Positions 2,795 through 13,162 of a DNA stretch of 64,000 bases are shown here, piece after piece. The DNA is taken from IMG/VR virus record IMGVR_UViG_3300045988_009603; one strand, written 5' to 3'. Made by a program: the position numbers and the translations under genes. Source of the DNA: a virus (Duplodnaviria > Heunggongvirae > Uroviricota > Caudoviricetes). Positions within the stretch are counted from its first letter, which is position 1. The number at the start of each line of letters is the position of its first letter. The notes beneath the pieces were generated by a model. It had not been told where the DNA came from, made no database searches, and was given only the letters and a program-made list of their open reading frames with translations.

Positions 2795-2870
2795 TGGAGA
2801 ATCCGAAGGGACTCGAACCCTTATAAACCTGTTTTGCAGACAGGCACATAGCCATTTCTGTCACGGATTC
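2795..2870 (-). tRNA. tRNA-Cys (anticodon GCA)
   Basis: anticodon stem-loop CCTGT-CTGCAAA-ACAGG; T-loop TTCGAGT; U73 discriminator; CCA encoded. Confidence 0.75.
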
Positions 2871-2874
2871 AAAT

Positions 2875-2967
2875 TGGAGGAAGATACCAGACTTGAACTG
2901 GTACACCGATTTCTCAGCTACTGGCAGTTTAGCAAACTGCTCCCTTACCTTTTAGGGTTAATCTTCC
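2875..2967 (-). tRNA. tRNA-Ser (anticodon GCU), long variable arm
   Basis: acceptor GGAAGAT/ATCTTCC; anticodon loop TGCTAAA; T-loop GTTCAAGTC; about 93 nt. Confidence 0.75.
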
Positions 2968-2968
2968 A

Positions 2969-3703
2969 TTATTTCTGTAATGCGTTCTTCATTTCTGGTG
3001 TTGCAATAGTGTCGATTACACCAGTTTTACAAGCATCATCAAACCAGTCTGGTAAGATACCTGCTAAGAACCCATTGATATTCGTTTTAAGGTACTCTGC
3101 AATAAGGGCAGTTTCTTCTTCAATCATCTGCACAACTTCATCTGCATAAGCTGTAATCTTCGAGATACCTTCATTAATCTTACTAACAGCTTGGTTAGCT
3201 AAATCAGAAATAGTATCAAGACCTTTATCAATAGCATCCTGTAAGTCGCTTAATACATCATTAACGCCATCTAGTGTACTGTTAATTGTATCCATAGCTT
3301 TTTGACCATACTCTGTAGCAACACCCATAATACCACTAAATGGTGTACAACCAACTTGCTCTCCTGCTGCACCCATAACATTAGAGTAGCCTTTTGCTAC
3401 CTGCATACGTGATGAAAACTCATCAATGGACTTTTGACCATAATCTGTCAGTGTCTTAGTAGTTGATGTAGTGCTTGTCAGACTCGTTGTAAAGCTATTA
3501 AGCAGAACTGTTGTAAGTCCAGCAGCAATAAGCTTATCCTTTATTGTGGGGTCTGTTACAGAGCTAATAGAGCTTACAAGTGATGTAGAGGCAGCTACGG
3601 TTCCACCTAGAACTGCTGCACCAGTAATAAGGGGATTAGAAAACCCTCTACCGGTTTTTAAGAGATTAAAAATCTCCTTACCTTGTTCTGTCATCTCTTT
3701 CAT
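2969..3703 (-). CDS. hypothetical protein embedded in tRNA cluster
   Basis: ORF track 2969..3766; internal start MKEMTEQ at 3703 preferred because upstream part overlaps tRNA-Phe; Thr/Ser-rich, no recognised domain. Confidence 0.5.
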   Translation of the reverse strand: MKEMTEQGKEIFNLLKTGRGFSNPLITGAAVLGGTVAASTSLVSSISSVTDPTIKDKLIAAGLTTVLLNSFTTSLTSTTSTTKTLTDYGQKSIDEFSSRMQVAKGYSNVMGAAGEQVGCTPFSGIMGVATEYGQKAMDTINSTLDGVNDVLSDLQDAIDKGLDTISDLANQAVSKINEGISKITAYADEVVQMIEEETALIAEYLKTNINGFLAGILPDWFDDACKTGVIDTIATPEMKNALQK

Positions 3704-3719
3704 TAAGCACCTTTGAAAT

Positions 3720-3795
3720 TGGTAGTCCAGTGGGATTTGAACCCTCTTCTCATGTTTTTCAGACACGCGCTTTAACCATATAAGCTACTTGGACT
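3720..3795 (-). tRNA. tRNA-Phe (anticodon GAA)
   Basis: anticodon loop CTGAAAA; T-loop TTCAAAT; A73; T-stem has one non-WC pair so boundaries +/-2. Confidence 0.6.
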
Positions 3796-3801
3796 ATAAA
3801 T

Positions 3802-3877
3802 TGGGGTGACCTACGGGATTTGAACCCGTATAGACCATGTTCACAGCATGGGTCATTACCATTTATGATAAGGCCAC
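3802..3877 (-). tRNA. tRNA-His (anticodon GUG)
   Basis: anticodon stem CCATG/CATGG, loop CTGTGAA; T-arm ACGGG-TTCAAAT-CCCGT. Confidence 0.8.
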
Positions 3878-3908
3878 ATTTAAGGACTCTCGTAAGAACC
3901 CTTAGAAG

Positions 3909-3984
3909 TGGCAGCGGCATAAGGATTTGAACCTTAATAAGACAGCTTCAGAGACTGCTGCATTGCCAGTTATGCTATACCGCT
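3909..3984 (-). tRNA. tRNA-Gln (anticodon CUG)
   Basis: standard cloverleaf, D-stem GCAT/ATGC, anticodon loop CTCTGAA. Confidence 0.65.
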
Positions 3985-3989
3985 AAATT

Positions 3990-4068
3990 TGGTACTCCAT
4001 ATCGGATTCGAACCGATACATAACACAGATTTTAAGTCTGGCCTCTCTGCCAATTGGAGTAATGGAGC
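3990..4068 (-). tRNA. tRNA with anticodon UAA (Leu isoacceptor by anticodon), short variable arm
   Basis: anticodon loop CTTAAAA; D-loop CAATTGGCAGA; A73; T-arm ATCGG-TTCGAAT-CCGAT. Confidence 0.5.
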
Positions 4069-4070
4069 AT

Positions 4071-4146
4071 TGGCGGGGGATGTTGGAATTGAACCAACTT
4101 CTTCGATTTCAAAGACCGAGGTTTTAACCTTGTAAACTAATCCCCT
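4071..4146 (-). tRNA. tRNA-Gln (anticodon UUG)
   Basis: anticodon stem TCGGT/ATCGA, loop CTTTGAA; T-arm GTTGG-TTCAATT-CCAAC. Confidence 0.6.
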
Positions 4147-4154
4147 TTAAATCT

Positions 4155-4712
4155 TTACTTCCTTAGTGGATGAATAAAGAATGCCAACATAACTCTTTCC
4201 CTTGAGAATGCTCTTTCTTCTGGGACAACACTTTTAAGTTTCCATCCAACATAAATTCTCCAGTAGAATTGTTTACCAAAGACTTTAATTGATGGGATAA
4301 AGGCGAATAACCCCCAAGCATTACTGTTCCACATTAGGAGATAACCTGTCTGATTATCTTCATGGTCAGAACTTACGTTGATATTACCTTTCCACTTAGT
4401 AACATCTTTTACATCTCTTCCTAACACATGGTAAGAGAAGTTATAAGCTTTGTTTCTCCAGAGCCATCCAACTCTCTGCAAATAGACACCAAGCTTACCA
4501 ATCTTTCTAATCTTAGCCCATCTTTTAACGTGACCTTCATCACCATCAATTGGGTTGTCATATGTCTCCATCCATCTGAATCCAAAAGGTAGATGTCCTT
4601 TCTTCTCACTATAGAATGGAACTACAAAAGGTGCTAAGATAACTGCTAAGATTGCTGCCAATGGGTCTAGCAAAGCTAGGAAAATCCATGAAGCATACTT
4701 CAAATATCTCAT
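4155..4712 (-). CDS. hypothetical membrane protein embedded in tRNA cluster
   Basis: 185 aa ORF; hydrophobic N-terminus IFLALLDPLAAILAVILAPFVVPF; Trp-rich. Confidence 0.5.
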   Translation of the reverse strand: MRYLKYASWIFLALLDPLAAILAVILAPFVVPFYSEKKGHLPFGFRWMETYDNPIDGDEGHVKRWAKIRKIGKLGVYLQRVGWLWRNKAYNFSYHVLGRDVKDVTKWKGNINVSSDHEDNQTGYLLMWNSNAWGLFAFIPSIKVFGKQFYWRIYVGWKLKSVVPEERAFSRERVMLAFFIHPLRK

Positions 4713-4731
4713 TTAAATAGCCTCTTTAAAT

Positions 4732-4807
4732 TGGCGCAGGATAAGGGATTCGAACCCCTATTAACAGCTTCGTAGACTGTTGCTCTATCCATTTGAACTA
4801 ATCCTGC
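4732..4807 (-). tRNA. tRNA-Arg (anticodon ACG)
   Basis: acceptor GCAGGAT/ATCCTGC; anticodon loop CTACGAA; T-loop TTCGAAT. Confidence 0.75.
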
Positions 4808-4812
4808 AAAAT

Positions 4813-4890
4813 TGGTGTTCCAAGACGGATTCGAACCGTCACTAGTACAAGGTTTGAGCTTGCATCCTCTGCCAATTGGGATACTGGAAC
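4813..4890 (-). tRNA. tRNA with anticodon CAA (Leu isoacceptor by anticodon), short variable arm
   Basis: anticodon stem GCAAG/CTTGT, loop CTCAAAC; D-loop CAATTGGCAGA; A73. Confidence 0.5.
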
Positions 4891-4891
4891 A

Positions 4892-4966
4892 TGGTACTCA
4901 CTAAAGGACTTGAACCTTTTTCTTCATCTTGTAAGGGTGATGTTTTACCATATAAACTAAGCGAGT
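4892..4966 (-). tRNA. tRNA-Val (anticodon UAC)
   Basis: anticodon loop CTTACAA; T-arm AAAGG-TTCAAGT-CCTTT; one C-A mismatch in anticodon stem. Confidence 0.6.
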
Positions 4967-5061
4967 ATGAAAGAGGTCTGAAGTTGTGCCGCTAACTCAA
5001 CTCCGTGGAATTTGTTACGGTCTTCAGTTGACACCAGCGGTCTTTCACTTGACCTCTGAAT
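4967..5061 (-). ncRNA. structured non-tRNA spacer (pseudoknot-like crossed helices)
   Basis: no T-loop motif; crossed complementarities CTGAAG/CTTCAG and GCCGCT/AGCGGT plus outer GAGGTC/GACCTC. Confidence 0.3.
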
Positions 5062-5138
5062 TGGTGCTGCTCACAGGACTCGAACCTGCATTTCCATCCT
5101 TACAAGGGATGTGTAATAGCCAATTATACGAAAGCAGC
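5062..5138 (-). tRNA. tRNA-Thr (anticodon UGU)
   Basis: anticodon stem CATCC/GGATG, loop CTTGTAA; T-arm GCAGG-TTCGAGT-CCTGT. Confidence 0.8.
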
Positions 5139-5139
5139 A

Positions 5140-5553
5140 TTAAACTTTTATGATACCAGCATGTACTTTTCTGTGACAGTTAGCGCACAAGACAATGCAC
5201 TTTCTGATTTCATCTTTTAATCTTTTTGTGGAGTATGAATAAAGTGATGCAGGATTCAAATCTTTCTGGGAAGGGTCTGTATGGTGTAAATCCAATGCAA
5301 CTGGTTCTTTCTCACCACATATATGACATTTGCATAAAGCTTTGTACCTTCTAGCTAGAGTCTTGTTATACTCTCTCTTGAAGTTACGAGTACTTTTAAT
5401 AGCCTCTTTCCTTTTATCATTTGCTTGATAACTCTTTGCATCACGAAGTCTTGCACAGTCTTTGCATTGACTTTGAAGACCATCTTTCTTGTTCTTATTC
5501 TTATGGAATAAGCTTTCATCTTTTGGTATTCTGCAAGTACTGCATATTTTCAT
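5140..5553 (-). CDS. HNH endonuclease embedded in tRNA cluster
   Basis: 137 aa; Cys-rich, LDLHHTDP...CANCHRKVH HNH motif. Confidence 0.75.
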   Translation of the reverse strand: MKICSTCRIPKDESLFHKNKNKKDGLQSQCKDCARLRDAKSYQANDKRKEAIKSTRNFKREYNKTLARRYKALCKCHICGEKEPVALDLHHTDPSQKDLNPASLYSYSTKRLKDEIRKCIVLCANCHRKVHAGIIKV

Positions 5554-5567
5554 ATCACACCTTAATT

Positions 5568-5642
5568 TGGAGCATCCAGAGGGAATCGAACCCTCAACCT
5601 CAGTTTGGAAGACTGTAATTTTCCCGTTTAAACTATGGATGC
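5568..5642 (-). tRNA. tRNA-Gly (anticodon UCC)
   Basis: acceptor GCATCCA/TGGATGC; anticodon loop CTTCCAA; T-loop TTCGATT. Confidence 0.7.
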
Positions 5643-5648
5643 ACTAAT

Positions 5649-5724
5649 TGGTGGAGTCACTGAGAATTGAACTCAGTTACCGAGTTTGCAAAACTCGAAT
5701 TTTAACCATATAAACTATGACCCC
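5649..5724 (-). tRNA. tRNA-Ala (anticodon UGC)
   Basis: anticodon stem CGAGT/ACTCG, loop TTTGCAA; G3-U70 pair in acceptor stem. Confidence 0.8.
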
Positions 5725-5730
5725 AATGTT

Positions 5731-5806
5731 TGGTACAGGTGGAGGGAATTGAACCCATCGTCTTACTGATTAAGAGTCAGCCGCATAACCATTTTGCTAC
5801 ACCTGC
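5731..5806 (-). tRNA. tRNA-Lys (anticodon CUU)
   Basis: anticodon loop CTCTTAA; paralogous to the UUU copy at 6957-7032; T-stem only GGG/CCC. Confidence 0.6.
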
Positions 5807-5813
5807 ATTAATT

Positions 5814-5891
5814 TGGTAGGAGACAAGGGATTCGAACCCTCAAACACCAACTTCTAAGGATGGTAGGTTTACCAATTACCGTCAATCTCCC
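5814..5891 (-). tRNA. tRNA with anticodon UAG (Leu isoacceptor by anticodon), short variable arm
   Basis: anticodon loop CTTAGAA (stem has U-U mismatch); T-arm GAGGG-TTCGAAT-CCCTT; D-loop TAATTGGTAAA. Confidence 0.45.
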
Positions 5892-5966
5892 ATTAAATCT
5901 TTTTAGAGAACTTCTAAGAACCTAAGCAACAAGGTTCCACAACAAGCTGTAATAACCTTAGAAGCC

Positions 5967-5990
5967 CTCTAAAAAGACCTAAATAGGTCT
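5967..5990 (-). terminator. internal terminator-like hairpin in tRNA operon spacer
   Basis: minus-strand AGACCUAUUUAGGUCU followed by U5. Confidence 0.45.
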
Positions 5991-6146
5991 TTGCATAGTC
6001 TTGTTTAATCCGGTGACTAGAACCTTTGGAGAGCTTGATATTATCTCTTCTCCGTGACACCTACTAGGTGCTTTATCAGTGTGTACGACAATACACGAGG
6101 GATACCAAAGCAACATCCGAATGAAGCTTGGCTTTAAATCTTATTA

Positions 6147-6236
6147 GGCGGTAAGTAAAGGAGTCGAACCCTCACCGTATCTCTACAGTGGCAACAGTTT
6201 TCAAGACTGTTTGGCTGCCATTAGCCGCTACCTACC
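6147..6236 (-). tRNA. tRNA-Ser (anticodon UGA), long variable arm
   Basis: anticodon stem ACAGT/ACTGT, loop CTTGAAA; about 90 nt; G73; 3' CC encoded, terminal A not. Confidence 0.7.
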
Positions 6237-6249
6237 CCTAATAAGACTT

Positions 6250-6332
6250 TGGCATGGGACGGAGGAGTTGAACCCCTTTGAAACGGTTTTGGAGGCCGTT
6301 GCTCATGCCTTAGAGTCTTAACATCGTCCCAC
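6250..6332 (-). tRNA. tRNA-Trp-like (anticodon CCA) with extra nucleotides between acceptor stem and D-stem
   Basis: anticodon arm ACGGC-CUCCAAA-ACCGU resembles E. coli tRNA-Trp; acceptor GTGGGAC/GTCCCAT; about 7 nt longer than canonical. Confidence 0.45.
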
Positions 6333-6474
6333 ACTATAATTCGAAGCTTACCGTATTTTCGCAACACTGTAAAGCCCCTTCTCAGATTATTTACATGTTC
6401 TGGAAAACATGAGATACAGACCACCTCCTTACACGGAGACCCGATAAGGTCGTCTAAGCAATCTGCTAACTATT

Positions 6475-6551
6475 TGGCACACCCTACAGGATTCGAACCT
6501 GTAACTAACGATTTAGAAGACCGTTGCTCTATCCAATTGAACTAAGGGTGC
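6475..6551 (-). tRNA. tRNA-Arg (anticodon UCU)
   Basis: canonical D-arm GTTC-AATTGGATA-GAGC; anticodon loop CTTCTAA. Confidence 0.8.
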
Positions 6552-6798
6552 ATTAATCTTTAAAGACTCTCTTAGAAAGCCCTTAAAGATGCCCACCTTA
6601 TTAATCATACCGTGGGCGAGTACGCCAAATTCTTTGATGAGGGATTGGAAGACCTCACTGGTGTTTAGCCTATCAAGCTACTGCCAGAAAAACATTGTCG
6701 TTTGCATTTATTTTAAATTTGCAAAATAGACGCTACGCAACGAAAACTAAGGTTACTATAAAGTGGTCACATGTTAATGTCAACAACTTTATTGAAAT

Positions 6799-6874
6799 TG
6801 GTACTGGTAGGTGGAATCGAACCACCGATGTTCCCTTATCAGGGGAGTGTTATAACCTTCTTAACTATACCAGC
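6799..6874 (-). tRNA. tRNA-Ile (anticodon GAU)
   Basis: anticodon loop CTGATAA; T-arm GGTGG-TTCGATT-CCACC. Confidence 0.8.
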
Positions 6875-6875
6875 T

Positions 6876-6952
6876 TGGAGGTTCAGATGGGAATCGAACC
6901 CACATTCATAGGGCTTATGAGACCCCTGCATTACCTTATCTGCGACTGAACC
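6876..6952 (-). tRNA. tRNA-Met (anticodon CAU; elongator Met or Ile2 not distinguishable)
   Basis: acceptor GGTTCAG/CTGAACC; anticodon loop CTCATAA. Confidence 0.7.
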
Positions 6953-6956
6953 ATAT

Positions 6957-7032
6957 TGGTAGAAGTGGAGGGATTCGAACCCATCGCCTGTCAGATTAAA
7001 AGTCTGCCGCATCACCATTCTGCTACACTTCC
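6957..7032 (-). tRNA. tRNA-Lys (anticodon UUU)
   Basis: anticodon loop CTTTTAA; same unusual T-stem as the CUU copy. Confidence 0.65.
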
Positions 7033-7179
7033 ATTAAATTATCTTTGTAGATAAGCTACCCAGACTTGCTTAAGGTCTGTAGCGATGTGCTTTGTTGGGT
7101 TTAAATCTAGAATTTACCCTTTCACCCTTTGTGGTCGCATACTCACAGGTAAGCTTAATAACTTATCTACAAAGATAAT

Positions 7180-7316
7180 TACCAGACCGTTGTTTATCAT
7201 CTTAAGTGCTACCATTACACCAACTCGACATCTGCCGAGTGAAGGAATCGAACCTTCGCCTTTTCTTTACCGGAGAAATAGATTGTTTAAGTTTTGCTGT
7301 AAACGGTCTTCTGTAA
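7180..7316 (-). ncRNA. tRNA-like element with permuted arm order, enclosed by a terminal inverted repeat
   Basis: minus strand reads terminal stem AGACCGUU, T-arm GAAGG-UUCGAUU-CCUUC, ACUCGGC, AGAU, GUCGAGU, D-arm-like GUGUAAUGGUAGCAC, closing AACGGUCU; no canonical 5'-to-3' cloverleaf. Confidence 0.3.
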
Positions 7317-7490
7317 ATTTGTTGAGCCAGACCAAGTTTTAAATTTTTTCAAAATTAAATTGGCTTGAAAATATCATACGTACTTGCTGAATTTGGTCTT
7401 CTGCTCCTTTAAAGAATACTCGTAAGAACTCTTTAAGGGAGGGGCTAAATAGCCCTCTCAAAACATCATCTTGAAATACTTATTATAATT

Positions 7491-7568
7491 TGGCGGTTAC
7501 GAAGGGATTTGAACCCTCATCATCTCCCGTGACAGGGGAGTATTTTAACCAGATTAAACTACATAACC
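7491..7568 (-). tRNA. tRNA-Asp (anticodon GUC)
   Basis: anticodon stem CTCCC/GGGAG, loop CTGTCAC; G73. Confidence 0.85.
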
Positions 7569-7574
7569 TTTATT

Positions 7575-7662
7575 TGGTGTGCCGTGTAGGAGTCGAACCT
7601 ACCGAGTCTCAATGACAAGGGATTTACAGTCCCCACCGCTACCATCTACGGGATAACGACAC
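7575..7662 (-). tRNA. tRNA-Tyr (anticodon GUA), long variable arm
   Basis: anticodon loop CTGTAAA; T-arm GTAGG-TTCGACT-CCTAC; about 88 nt. Confidence 0.8.
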
Positions 7663-7671
7663 ATTTAAATT

Positions 7672-7748
7672 TGGCGGTTAGTCAGGGATTCGAACCCTGT
7701 GCCATTCGCTTAACAGGCGACCGCACATACCTTATGTGCTTCCTAACC
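7672..7748 (-). tRNA. tRNA-Asn (anticodon GUU)
   Basis: D-stem GCAC/GTGC; anticodon loop CTGTTAA. Confidence 0.8.
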
Positions 7749-7825
7749 TTAATACATTGCCAGACCGTGTTTTTTCTTTTATCCGCAAAAAGTAGTTTGT
7801 TGCTGCATACGGTCTTCTGCAAAAT

Positions 7826-7902
7826 TGGAGGCGGGTGCAGGAGTCGAACCTGCCGATACCATGCTAATGAGACATGTGAGACGCCCTTTCTCTATACCCG
7901 CA
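7826..7902 (-). tRNA. tRNA with anticodon CAU (second Met-type; initiator or Ile2 possible)
   Basis: anticodon loop CTCATTA; T-arm GCAGG-TTCGACT-CCTGC; 1:72 mismatch. Confidence 0.55.
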
Positions 7903-7993
7903 ATTCTTAATGACCAGACCAAATATCTTCTTTGTCCGATTTATCTTCAGATGAATAAGATTAAGTTTGCTGCAATTGGTCTTCTGTCAAAAC

Positions 7994-8071
7994 TGGCGTT
8001 CCAGAAGGGATTTGAACCCTCAAATATCCACTTTGAAAGAGTGGTGACTTTACCGTTTTGTCTACTGGAAC
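7994..8071 (-). tRNA. tRNA-Glu (anticodon UUC)
   Basis: anticodon stem CCACT/AGTGG, loop CTTTCAA; acceptor GTTCCAG/CTGGAAC. Confidence 0.85.
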
Positions 8072-8078
8072 ATTAATT

Positions 8079-8155
8079 TGGTCTCTGTTGGAGGACTTGA
8101 ACCTCCGGCCTTACCGCCCCAAACGGAACGCTCTACCAAGCTGAGCTAAACAGAG
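8079..8155 (-). tRNA. tRNA-Pro (anticodon UGG)
   Basis: canonical D-arm GCTC-AGCTTGGTA-GAGC; anticodon loop TTTGGGG. Confidence 0.75.
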
Positions 8156-8181: not shown

Positions 8182-8211
8182 ACTTTAACATTATTTTTTA
8201 GTGGTTGTCAA
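8182..8211 (-). promoter_or_regulatory. putative sigma70-like promoter of tRNA operon
   Basis: minus strand TTGACA-N18-TAAAGT, A/T-rich upstream; about 25 nt upstream of tRNA-Pro 5' end. Confidence 0.45.
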
Positions 8212-8319: not shown

Positions 8320-9735
8320 TTACCAGATGTAACGGTCAATCATTACTGCTTTGAGCATTACGCTGGTTGGGTCAAACTTCTCACCACCAAGCAGAGCTTT
8401 TAAAGTGGCTGGAGAGAACCCTGATACCATCGCTACACCATTATCCTTAACAGATACTTCGCAAGTACCATTACGGTTTGCTAAGTACCAGAATACTAGT
8501 TGTGGCATTTCGTACCCAGCTTTTTTGTACTTACTCTGAATTGCTTCAAAGTTTGTACGACCATTTGCACCATCAACCTGATTAAACTCCATATCAGAGA
8601 AGATAATAAGCTTACTTGGCATATCTTTCTGAGTCAAGTTGTTTCTCTTACCTACCTCAAGAATACGGTCAAAAGCTGCTTGTAAGTTAGTTGAACCATA
8701 TTCAACATGACGCATTACCTGACGATGACGGTTTCGTAAATCACCACTCAGTTCAATGAAATGAGGGTTTGTTGAATAGACCATTAACTCATCTTTAAAG
8801 CAACCTGTATTGCGTTCTGCTACATACAAGGCAAGTGATACACCAATATCAAGGGCAGTAATTGAGCCAAGATTCACCCAAGACATTGAGCTTGAAACAT
8901 CAGTCATACACAAGATGTTTTCACCTTCTGCCATCCAGTTTGGTAGTGCTTTCCACTGCTCATTAGCAACATCTGCATTACCATACTTGATAGATTTAAT
9001 CACATCGTATGGGTAAACAGCACCAGCGTTAATCTTGGCCTCACCTTTTGAGAGGGACTCGATGTAAGCTTTATAACGTTCCCCATCTTTACGGTTAAAG
9101 AGTTTTTGGTAACGTGCAGCAGCGAGTGAAGGAATCTTGCTGTAGTCAATCTTACCAAACTCATTAGCAGAGATTTTTTGCTCAACCGTATCAGACAGTG
9201 CAGATAACAGTGTGCGGTACTCTTTCTCGCTTAAGTTTGCAAACTTGCAGAAACGTTTTACAAACTGTTTGTGGCGTGGTTTTACTCGTGGCAACCACTT
9301 AGCTGCTAAACCTGCTGTTGCAGGGTCTAGTAATGCTGCTTCTAAATGTTTGAAGGCATCCGTCTCAAAGCGAGTACCTACGAAGATTTTGAAGTCATCA
9401 AAACGACCAAGTTCTGCAATCTTGTCCATAATGCGAAGAACCTGTGTAGGTTCTAAAACTTTATCTTCAATTGCTTGAAGTAAAACAGTTCGGAAAGCTT
9501 TACGCTCACCCATACCTTCTCGTACATCTCGCATATGCAGTAAAATACGAACTGCAACATCAACATCCTCACGCAAAGCTTTGTAGAACAGGTCTGGTAA
9601 GATTTCTACATTGCTACGGCTTGAGCCAGCGGCTTTGTAAAAGTCTACCAGAGCAGACATTGATGAAGTATGGTTTACAGCACCATTTTCAGTTCGACCT
9701 GCATGAAGGTGCGCATGTTTAAATAACTCGCTCAT
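8320..9735 (-). CDS. von Willebrand factor A (vWA) domain protein with alpha-helical N-terminal domain
   Basis: 471 aa; MIDAS-like DVSSSMS motif about residue 275. Confidence 0.65.
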   Translation of the reverse strand: MSELFKHAHLHAGRTENGAVNHTSSMSALVDFYKAAGSSRSNVEILPDLFYKALREDVDVAVRILLHMRDVREGMGERKAFRTVLLQAIEDKVLEPTQVLRIMDKIAELGRFDDFKIFVGTRFETDAFKHLEAALLDPATAGLAAKWLPRVKPRHKQFVKRFCKFANLSEKEYRTLLSALSDTVEQKISANEFGKIDYSKIPSLAAARYQKLFNRKDGERYKAYIESLSKGEAKINAGAVYPYDVIKSIKYGNADVANEQWKALPNWMAEGENILCMTDVSSSMSWVNLGSITALDIGVSLALYVAERNTGCFKDELMVYSTNPHFIELSGDLRNRHRQVMRHVEYGSTNLQAAFDRILEVGKRNNLTQKDMPSKLIIFSDMEFNQVDGANGRTNFEAIQSKYKKAGYEMPQLVFWYLANRNGTCEVSVKDNGVAMVSGFSPATLKALLGGEKFDPTSVMLKAVMIDRYIW

Positions 9736-9816
9736 ATTTTACTCTCTTCTCTCATTTGTTGTTTGATGTGACAGACTTTAGAGCAACTTTGTAGAGTCTG
9801 TCAACACCTTTTAAAA

Positions 9817-11445: not shown

Positions 11446-11817
11446 ATGAAGGCTAAGAGTGCAAAAGACTTTTATTGCTTCCTACAATCCTATATCAATT
11501 CCGTGGAGAAAGGTGATAGATACAATCTTAAAGATGTTATTGCATCACCTTTAACATGGAGACTTAGCAAATGGCCTGAAGAAGATATCACACCCACTAG
11601 TAAACAACCTACCTACATCCCAGATATTAATCTCCCAGATTCAGATAAGTTATTGTATCCAATGTTCCACATTGTTGGGCTTGGTACATTTCTTATGGAT
11701 ATCCAGTATGTAATCGGTAAAGGTTATAAGGTTGAAGGTATTGTTGTTGGTGATGTATCTCCACAACATAAAGGCTATTTTAGATTAAACGCACGTTTAG
11801 AGGCTAAAAAGAAATGA
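11446..11817 (+). CDS. hypothetical protein, paralogous to N-terminal domain of next gene
   Basis: 123 aa; shares FLMDIQYVIGKGY-type motif with 11814..12698. Confidence 0.55.
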   Translation: MKAKSAKDFYCFLQSYINSVEKGDRYNLKDVIASPLTWRLSKWPEEDITPTSKQPTYIPDINLPDSDKLLYPMFHIVGLGTFLMDIQYVIGKGYKVEGIVVGDVSPQHKGYFRLNARLEAKKK

Positions 11818-12698
11818 TTAAAGCAAAGACTTACCCAGACTTCAAAGAATTTGTAAAGGGTTTCGTTGCAAATGTAAAGGCTGGTAAGAGATATGATTTT
11901 AGAACATACCAAGAAGCTATTTTACCACTCACCTATAGCTCATATTGGCCTGAAGCTGATATTGCAGAGGTTGAGAAGTTTGACTACAAACCAGACTACA
12001 AAGTTCCTTTCAGTGATGAACTTCTTTACAGTGTTGGTGCACAGATGAGAACTTCTGATTTCTTCATGGATTTACAGTATGCAATCATCAATGGTAAAGA
12101 TGTTGACACGGTGTATTGTGAATGGTTGGCAAGAGTTAAGCCGTTCTCAATGTTGAATGCTAAGTTGAAGGATGCCATTAAGCCACCAGTAATTACTCAG
12201 CAGCCAACAAACCAAACAGTCAATGAAGGTGGAGCACTTACCCTAAGTGTTCTCGCAACTAATGCCACTGGGTATCAATGGAAGAAGGATGGTGAGGACA
12301 TCTCCAGTGCCACTTCTGCAACTTACACAAAACAATCCGTAGCGCCTTCTGACGCTGGTTCATACACTTGTGTTGTATCTGGAGAGGGTGGGACAAGTGT
12401 CACCTCAGATGCAGCAACAGTGACTGTGAATGCCTTACCAGTAATTACTCAGCAGCCAACCAATCAAGAAATCACTGAAGGCGAGAACTTAACGCTGAAT
12501 GTTGTGGCTACTGGTGCAACAGGTTACCAGTGGAAGAAAGGCGAGGAAGTCATCCCAGACGCAACTGCTGCAACTTATACCAAAGAAGGTGCAACCGCTG
12601 CTGATGCAGGAAGCTACACCTGTGTAGTGACTGGCGCAGGTGGCTCTGTAACATCTAATGCAGCAACAGTTACAGTTAACCCAACAGGGGAGGCATAA
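11814..12698 (+). CDS. protein with two tandem Ig-like domains
   Basis: 294 aa; duplicated about 80 aa unit VITQQPTNQ...GSYTCVV...ATVTVN. Confidence 0.6.
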   Translation: MIKAKTYPDFKEFVKGFVANVKAGKRYDFRTYQEAILPLTYSSYWPEADIAEVEKFDYKPDYKVPFSDELLYSVGAQMRTSDFFMDLQYAIINGKDVDTVYCEWLARVKPFSMLNAKLKDAIKPPVITQQPTNQTVNEGGALTLSVLATNATGYQWKKDGEDISSATSATYTKQSVAPSDAGSYTCVVSGEGGTSVTSDAATVTVNALPVITQQPTNQEITEGENLTLNVVATGATGYQWKKGEEVIPDATAATYTKEGATAADAGSYTCVVTGAGGSVTSNAATVTVNPTGEA

Positions 12699-13162
12699 TG
12701 CAACTCTCAAGAAAAGGTTTAGATGCTATTAAGTTCTTTGAAGGTCTGAAGTTAGAGGCTTACGAAGACTCTGCCGGAATCCCAACAATTGGGTATGGTA
12801 CAATCCGTATTGACGGAAAACCTGTTAAGATGGGTATGAAAATCACTACTGAACAGGCTGAACAATATCTTCTCGCGGATGTTGAGAAGTTTGTTGCAGC
12901 AGTGAATAAAGCTATCAAGGTTCCAACCTCTCAGAATGAGTTCGATGCACTTGTAAGTGAAACATACAACATCGGTATCACAGCTATGCAGGATTCTACA
13001 TTTATCAAGCGCCACAATGCTGGTAATAAGGTAGGTTGTGCAGAAGCTATGCAGTGGTGGAACAAGGTTACAGTCAAGGGTAAGAAGGTCACTTCAAACG
13101 GTCTGAAAAATAGACGTAGAATGGAAGCTGACATTTATCTTGACAGTGTATATCCAAAGTAA
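12698..13162 (+). CDS. endolysin, T4-lysozyme-like muramidase (GH24)
   Basis: 154 aa; LKLEAYEDSAGIPTIGYGT...NIGITAM typical of lysozyme family. Confidence 0.8.
   Translation: MQLSRKGLDAIKFFEGLKLEAYEDSAGIPTIGYGTIRIDGKPVKMGMKITTEQAEQYLLADVEKFVAAVNKAIKVPTSQNEFDALVSETYNIGITAMQDSTFIKRHNAGNKVGCAEAMQWWNKVTVKGKKVTSNGLKNRRRMEADIYLDSVYPK

Follow-up and report, generated by a model that had tools for sequence, protein, structure and literature searches.

Ro60-Y RNA particles represent a conserved, still poorly understood RNA-surveillance system. The closest described examples are bacterial Ro60/Rsr proteins with YrlA/YrlB RNAs, including the Ro60 of Thermus phage phiLo with Yrl1/Yrl2 (PDB 9KOP, 9L5Y), in which a helical-repeat ring is combined with a von Willebrand factor A (vWA) domain bearing a MIDAS, an adhesion site that depends on a metal ion. 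Y RNAs place a terminal stem beside a conserved single-stranded motif, GNCGAA(N)G or GGUCCGA, and add a variable module, whose partner in bacteria and in phage phiLo is PNPase (PMC12135203). In RNAs of the YrlA type, GNCGAA(N)G is the Ro-binding motif and lies close to the 5' end. Bacterial YrlA RNAs adopt a permuted tRNA layout with a loop-closed acceptor stem, and bacterial Y RNAs have been called as genes on the same strand as the Ro60 gene and a few kb from it (Chen et al. 2014, PMC4201824). The locus considered here lies in a 64,000-nucleotide stretch of a Felixounavirus (IMG/VR record IMGVR_UViG_3300045988_009603; the whole stretch is referred to as the window), where a gene for a 471-amino-acid protein (8320-9735, minus strand) stands directly upstream of a cluster of 26 tRNA genes (2795-8155, minus strand; open reading frame (ORF) list, ARAGORN and Rfam) that hosts four RNA modules in its spacers. 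It is likely that this gene encodes a Ro60-class ring protein with the adjacently encoded small RNA family as its most likely ligands, and that the variable modules of these RNAs engage host factors.

Two further precedents are relevant. A 2024 PhageMaP preprint reported that gp130 of Bas63 (Escherichia phage JohannRWettstein) structurally resembles Ro60, that Bas63 without g130 is crippled on a host carrying Ppl, a defence gene, and that T7 is rescued on such a host by gp130 alone, whether expressed by a plasmid or by T7 itself; the authors also conjectured that "some tRNA genes are possibly Y RNAs" (PMC11482910). Because of this reported likeness and anti-Ppl role, the Ro60 idea was already in the literature at the protein level. 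The second precedent is the Class I RNAs of dictyostelid amoebae, which are ~60 nt long with 32-41% GC and a variable interior, and possess a 6-bp terminal stem with compensatory changes, an invariant 3' CUGU whose C pairs with an invariant 5' G, and an 11-nt motif, CCUUACAGCAA, directly after the 5' stem strand (Kjellin et al. 2021, PMC7919456). According to published accounts they occur in Dictyostelia only, and their function has been unexplained since 2004. In the preprint version of the amoeba study, DdR-21, one of the Class I RNAs, pulled down four proteins: GuaB, NdkC, CIBP/Rnp1A and the uncharacterised DDB_G0281243.

The 471-residue protein and its relatives

The protein is encoded by an ATG-initiated ORF in a region that over 250 records of Felix O1-like phages share at 80-99% identity. 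The protein is orthologous to Bas63 gp130, with 460 of 471 residues (98%) identical to bas63_0130, the same neighbours in synteny and the same position directly upstream of tRNA genes. PHROG 850, named "RNA-binding protein", matches it over its full length (E 9e-184), and some RefSeq records already label the gene "RNA-binding protein" or "vWFA protein"; a search of NCBIfam with the protein returned no match. Pfam divides the sequence into an N-terminal DUF2828 part (PF11443) and the vWA-like DUF7788 (PF25043) at residues 275-456 (E 1e-43), both above their gathering scores (102.6 bits versus a cut-off of 29, and 149.4 bits versus 27.1). More than 2,800 homologues, from phages of many hosts and from bacterial genomes, were scored.

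The original prediction had been drawn from domain order and context, and proposed about 270 residues of helical repeats followed by a C-terminal vWA domain with a MIDAS-like DVSSSMS motif, in the order found in Ro60/Rsr. A confident AlphaFold model, the comparison with the Ro60/TROVE fold that had been suggested as a check, agrees with it (predicted local distance difference test (pLDDT) 88.9, predicted template modelling score (pTM) 0.88). The first ~265 residues are all helices and make up an N-terminal domain (~aa 1-268; 8932-9735, minus strand) predicted to form a TROVE-like HEAT-repeat ring; the vWA domain (8323-8931, minus strand) follows, and the two together match the Ro60 fold of a helical-repeat ring with a C-terminal vWA. 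The motif D279-x-S281-x-S283 (nt 8887-8901), T349 (8689-8691) and D381 (8593-8595) do not vary among 42 homologues, which reach down to 40% identity (alignment A1), and because of this invariance DVSSS is recognized as belonging to a full MIDAS signature. Weak matches to VWA_2 occur in 25 of these 42 family members and weak matches to vWA_Ro60 (PF25045) in seven. Unlike Ro60/Rsr, the protein carries the Pfam signatures DUF2828 and DUF7788 in place of a TROVE signature, and it has 471 residues compared with ~500-540. Despite the missing TROVE signature, the modelled ring and the complete MIDAS support placing it in a divergent Ro60 structural class, in which a vWA domain, its MIDAS intact, caps a predicted helical TROVE-like ring.

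RNA modules in the spacers of the tRNA cluster

All four modules lie on the minus strand, 340-1140 nt downstream of the protein gene and interleaved with tRNAs, and share a terminal stem, a single-stranded motif (..CAGCAA) and a 3' CUG; the three short ones enclose a small hairpin. The short modules were identified with a stem-and-motif descriptor and with R1, a covariance model of 37 short modules, which across the whole 64-kb window matched these three and nothing else. A second covariance model, R2, was built from the 27 amoeba sequences of the PMC7919456 supplement with no phage input, and its two best matches in the window are 7761-7814 and 7915-7981. Module 1 (7915-7982, 68 nt; R1 E 1.6e-6), which is Y-like or Class I-like, consists of the stem AGACCAA/UUGGUCU followed by UUGCAGCAA, a variable hairpin and the 3' CUG, and sits between tRNA-Glu and tRNA-Met, 11-12 nt off each; the Rfam model of Class I RNAs (RF01414) aligns at the same boundaries with 17.8 bits, and R2 scores it among its top matches in the window (E 0.06). 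Module 2 (7761-7815, 55 nt; R1 E 8.5e-7), between tRNA-Met and tRNA-Asn, has the stem AGACCGU/ACGGUCU followed by AUGCAGCAA and the 3' CUG; it receives 15.0 bits from RF01414 and is the top R2 match in the window (E 0.057). The distances of 10-12 nt that separate modules 1 and 2 from the flanking tRNAs equal the tRNA-to-tRNA spacing in the cluster, and the cluster and all four modules probably share one precursor transcript. Module 3 (7328-7399, 72 nt; R1 E 8.1e-6) is kept in the phages Moogle, SUSP2 and Sf16 and shows the stem AGACCAA/UUGGUCU followed by AUUCAGCAA; the loop of its hairpin, UUUUCAA-GCCAAUUUAAU-UUUGAAAA, resembles CCA preceded by a discriminator base. Directly 3' of tRNA-Asp and before module 3 stands a GC-rich hairpin (7432-7462, minus strand; GAGAGGGCU-AUUU-AGCCCCUC), which is kept in four Ounavirinae genera and may be a processing or termination signal.

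Module 4 (7183-7309, 127 nt) is the non-canonical tRNA-like RNA that had been noticed at about 7180-7316, and the element proved to be real. ARAGORN does not call it, and the Rfam tRNA model matches its T-arm half alone. Read from 7309 to 7183, a tRNA-like domain lies inside the terminal stem AGACCGUU/AACGGUCU and UACAGCAA, and the stem is followed by the UUACAGCAA motif, the same combination as in the short modules. The domain comprises a variable-arm hairpin, a T arm (7257-7241, GAAGG-UUCGAUU-CCUUC), a closed 7-bp acceptor-like hairpin (7240-7223, ACUCGGC-AGAU-GUCGAGU, then UG) and a D arm (7220-7206, GUGU-AAUGGUA-GCAC), all on the minus strand. This is the arm order of a circularly permuted tRNA with its acceptor stem closed by a loop, and together with the enclosing stem it corresponds to the YrlA-type layout. 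R1 does not detect module 4 because of its 100-nt insert, and its support comes from the descriptor, covariation and YrlA-like relatives. The acceptor-like hairpin differs in sequence yet remains paired in Moogle, SUSP2 and Sf16 (CUCG/CGAG, CCCUUC/GAAGGG and CACG/CGUG), and a plain MAFFT alignment of 18 sequences of the permuted type contains double (compensatory) changes at 22 of 24 pairs in the four helices; 89% of its cells are paired, and its covariation score of 0.76 falls to 0.22 upon shuffling and to at most 0.17 upon sliding. Among 80 IMG/VR loci with homologues of the protein, 75 are distant (39-48% identity to the window protein), and in eight of the distant loci a permuted-tRNA descriptor recovered elements outside called tRNAs, all with a covarying closing stem and then (U)UUCAGCAA. 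It is true that in tandem tRNA genes a T arm is naturally followed by two acceptor strands and then a D arm, and that the same descriptor also caught several true tRNA-tRNA junctions. However, no called tRNA owns either arm of module 4, the pairing of its acceptor-like hairpin is held by compensatory changes across genera, and unrelated phages show this layout again, enclosed by that same stem and motif; a functionless element, whether left by the decay of a tRNA gene or by two tRNA halves joined by chance, is therefore highly improbable.

In contrast to the suggestion of the Bas63 preprint, the candidate RNAs at this locus are spacer RNAs rather than annotated tRNAs. In the Bas63 record (MZ501086), the small hypothetical coding sequences bas63_0137 and bas63_0138 lie on the opposite strand over the module spacer (L204:20749-21023, corresponding to window positions ~7040-7330) and cover part of the candidate RNAs. 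Both are probably mis-calls, and knockout data for them would then really report on the RNA modules.

The module family beside DUF2828 genes and its likeness to dictyostelid Class I RNAs

In the comparison of loci, the stem-and-motif descriptor produced 130 matches on the gene strand and 14 on the opposite strand, with 54 of the 75 distant loci positive and the matches concentrated within 300 nt of either gene end. Taken alone, the 5' motif has a perfect 7-bp partner in 47% of cases, a share that drops to 7% for the opposite strand and to 4% when sequences are shuffled. All 70 matches of R1 in the distant phage loci are on the gene strand and are spread over 47 of the 75 loci. A second test set of 80 loci from bacteria or metagenome-assembled genomes, none of which had been used for building R1, gave 51 matches in 38 loci, again all on the gene strand, mostly within 300 nt and mostly just upstream of the gene. 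The control set consisted of 80 IMG/VR loci obtained by an exact scan for the 14-base 5' motif AAAGGNNNNNTTACAGCAA, 79 of them without the gene; R1 matched none of these 79, and its only two matches fall in the single locus that encodes a homologue. As a test of the reverse association, the AAAGGNNNNNTTACAGCAA scan itself was rejected, the motif being too short: 71 of the 80 loci are chance matches without the stem, and eight stem-bearing loci look like coding sequence. In a plain MAFFT alignment, compensatory changes are found at six of the seven terminal-stem pairs. The recognition end is proposed to consist of a terminal stem of 6-9 bp, which starts with (A/U)G and ends with C(U/A)G, followed on the 5' side by single-stranded (U)U(A/U)C(A/C)GCAA.

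As at Ro60/Y RNA loci, the small RNA genes at DUF2828 loci lie on the strand of the protein gene and within a few kb of it, with several, up to six or seven, copies per locus. Unlike those loci, the RNAs in the window are embedded in a tRNA operon, and there is no linked repair gene such as RtcB or PNPase. A search of the distant loci for a conserved protein-coding neighbour, with RtcB, PNPase and RNA ligase among those sought, found none; the commonest family occurs at 17 of the 75 loci, and those neighbours that could be annotated are ClpP and DnaJ. ARAGORN finds no tRNA within the available stretch of most of the 75 distant phage loci. Given the linkage to the gene, the control result and the few tRNAs at distant loci, the motif tracks the DUF2828 gene and not tRNA clusters.

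These statistics bear directly on an alternative in which the protein acts purely at the protein level, for example as an inhibitor whose vWA/MIDAS face binds Ppl, so that the Ro60 shape would be a relic and the RNA motifs would be unrelated to it, maybe tRNA-operon processing signals. Such an account would fit the sufficiency of gp130 alone for the rescue of T7 on a Ppl host, as well as the invariance of the MIDAS, a classic protein-binding site. It is at odds with the confinement of the R1 matches (70/70 and 51/51) to the gene strand beside the gene, with their absence from the control loci lacking the gene, with the absence of any other conserved neighbour, and with the presence of R1 matches in 47 of the 75 distant loci, most of the 75 showing no ARAGORN tRNA in the available stretch. 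A protein-only role is considered unlikely.

The position of many modules raises a different alternative, namely that they are cis-acting leader or trailer sites on the gene transcript, serving autoregulation or mRNA stability, rather than trans-acting small RNAs. At many loci a module stands directly before the start codon or just past the stop codon, and some copies of only 37-45 nt abut the ribosome-binding region (L011:5951-5991, L015:1761-1800, L052:5904-5948). With L014:5947-5987 and L042:5903-5950, these form a group of minimal modules of 37-48 nt directly before the DUF2828 start codon, which suggests leader or autoregulatory use of the recognition element. As an explanation of the whole family, however, a cis role has a low probability, since the modules of the window lie hundreds of nucleotides downstream of the gene at tRNA-like spacing among tRNAs, copies are multiple, the variable parts include elaborate tRNA mimics, and their counterparts in amoebae, ~60 nt long, are abundant as free RNAs. 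A cis role of the gene-abutting copies may coexist with a trans role.

The enclosed part of the modules takes four forms: a simple hairpin, a T-arm hairpin, a permuted tRNA mimic and a normal-order tRNA body. Simple hairpins often have a GCCAA-type loop that, as in module 3, resembles a discriminator base plus CCA. Normal-order bodies with D, anticodon and T arms are found at L044:5734-5834 and L045:5758-5854, where the terminal stem and a UUUCAGCAA motif replace the acceptor stem; the Rfam tRNA model matches the latter body with 41 bits (L045:5778-5843). The YrlA model RF02553 aligns over its full length to L079:10497-10612 and L079:7816-7928 with 38.9 and 28.7 bits, below its gathering score of 69, the better alignment having an E of 1e-7 on a local search; both alignments fit the tRNA-like part and not the outer stem. 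Loops of the sequence GCCAA, CCAAC or CCCAAU close module hairpins at 7328-7399 (minus strand) in the window and at L001:3217-3238, L045:7563-7618, L079:7843-7901 and L079:10527-10582, reading like a discriminator base and CCA with a short leader behind them. By analogy with M. smegmatis YrlA, for which such processing has been reported (PMC4201824), these CCA-like loops hint that the modules could be cut apart or matured through RNase P and 3' processing.

Among Rfam families, Dicty_Class_I_RNA (RF01414) is the one other that aligns to the modules, with exact boundaries and scores of 12.8-24.3 bits, below its gathering threshold of 41.5. For the amoeba-only model R2, its 25 matches in phage loci (E<=1, best 1.5e-4) are all on the gene strand and all at known modules, and 21 of its 22 matches in bacterial loci are on the gene strand, 46 of 47 in total. 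Like Class I RNAs, the short modules (47-72 nt) are of about 60 nt and low GC, and their stem of at least 6 bp drifts by compensatory changes while the pairing of the 5' G with the 3' CUG(U) is kept; positions G5, C75 and G77 are invariant in alignment A3. The 5' strand is followed by (CC)UUACAGCAA and a variable interior: in A3, C14, G16, C17, A18 and A19 are invariant and T12 nearly so, the consensus is TACAGCAA, and several loci have the full CCTTACAGCAA, in agreement with the 11-nt Class I motif. Conversely, the amoeba Class I RNAs asu_can_20 and ppa_can_99 contain T-arm-like hairpins. Differences are also apparent, in that the phage stem is usually longer by one A-U pair and long tRNA-like inserts are common, whereas amoeba Class I genes are dispersed, carry a Dictyostelium upstream sequence element (DUSE) promoter ~60 nt upstream and are unlinked to a protein gene. 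DUSE is a promoter element of eukaryotes and would not be expected in a phage. An Arabidopsis sequence that had been rejected as an outgroup candidate (PMC7919456, Supplemental Table S4) has the full architecture, (U)GUUUUC-AUUACAGCAA...GAAAAC-UG, with a covariance model score of 40, and DUF2828 genes are mentioned in several plant papers. A tentative proposal, regarded as possible although not the favoured outcome, is that modules and Class I RNAs are one family and the dedicated ligand of DUF2828-type Ro60-like proteins in viruses, bacteria and eukaryotes; Class I RNAs would then be Y RNA equivalents, and their amoeba partner would be a DUF2828 protein, possibly DDB_G0281243.

Possible roles of the protein and its RNAs

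Like Y RNAs, the modules set a terminal stem beside a conserved single-stranded motif and a variable part, and at least one of them contains a permuted tRNA mimic. Should the 471-residue protein act as a Ro60-class ring protein, its four ligand RNAs in the window would be the modules in the spacers of the downstream tRNA operon. By analogy with Y RNAs, the ring would bind the terminal stem and UUACAGCAA, which would take the role of the GNCGAA / GGUCCGA stem, and during infection the variable, often tRNA-like module may attract host factors that handle tRNA or RNA, or act as a decoy for them. The present analysis shows the ORF, the fold, the MIDAS, the covarying RNA architecture and the specific genomic linkage, and the anti-Ppl phenotype of the orthologue has been shown by others. 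We infer in this way the physical binding of RNA, the expression and processing of the modules and the nature of what the variable part engages.

Several observations weigh against this reading. At the protein level, the TROVE model PF05731 matches neither the protein nor any of its 42 homologues in Pfam searches, even at E<=10, and neither the protein nor the 42-sequence profile had a significant match among PDB sequences, a phage TROVE or Ro60-type entry appearing only at E 2.2. At the RNA level, module 4 has no RF02553 match, even at E<=10, and the modules lack the GNCGAA(N)G / GGUCCGA motif of known Y RNAs, showing UUACAGCAA with the 3' CUG in its place. Approximately 40-50% of homologous loci have no module at the thresholds used. 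Some of the sequence sets for covariation were gathered with descriptors that demand pairing, for which reason the strand, position and control statistics are the cleaner evidence. Finally, since gp130 alone rescues T7, the phage RNAs are not needed for anti-Ppl activity; their role would therefore be a different one or a tuning of the protein, or else host RNAs would stand in for them.

Other features surround the locus. A promoter-like TTGACA-N18-TAAAGT occurs at 9775-9804 (minus strand) upstream of the gene and again at 8182-8211 (minus strand) between the gene and the first tRNA; the promoter and terminator scan, promoter-like sites overall included, did not exceed chance. On the divergent strand, genes for a protein with two Ig-like repeats (11814-12698, plus strand) and an endolysin (12698-13162, plus strand) are syntenic with bas63_0124 and bas63_0123. 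Within the tRNA cluster, a 137-aa ORF (5140-5553, minus strand) has CxxC pairs and an HNH-like C-terminus, its Sf16 equivalent being annotated as an HNH homing endonuclease. Sub-threshold Rfam matches are present in other tRNA spacers, to a permuted tmRNA at 6673-6857 (minus strand, 27 bits) and to tRNA-Sec at 6256-6330 (minus strand, 23 bits), and the stem-and-motif module is absent from both of these spacers.

The original observation is thus confirmed and its Ro60-like interpretation supported. The identification of the protein is already known at the level of a preprint and of annotation. The novelty lies with the RNAs, a cognate family specifically linked to DUF2828 genes and equivalent in architecture to dictyostelid Class I RNAs; full-text literature searches revealed no earlier description of an RNA motif beside DUF2828 genes. 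For Felixounavirus, the analysis flags small ORFs that are likely mis-annotated, and the anti-Ppl factor gp130 gains concrete candidate RNA partners. More broadly, the data indicate a second, sequence-divergent and widespread branch of Ro60, with its own RNA recognition code and modular tRNA-mimicking RNAs. The near-identity of its recognition module to Class I RNAs contradicts the published view that these are restricted to social amoebae, and turns the twenty-year-old question of Class I function into a concrete one: does a DUF2828 protein bind Class I RNAs?

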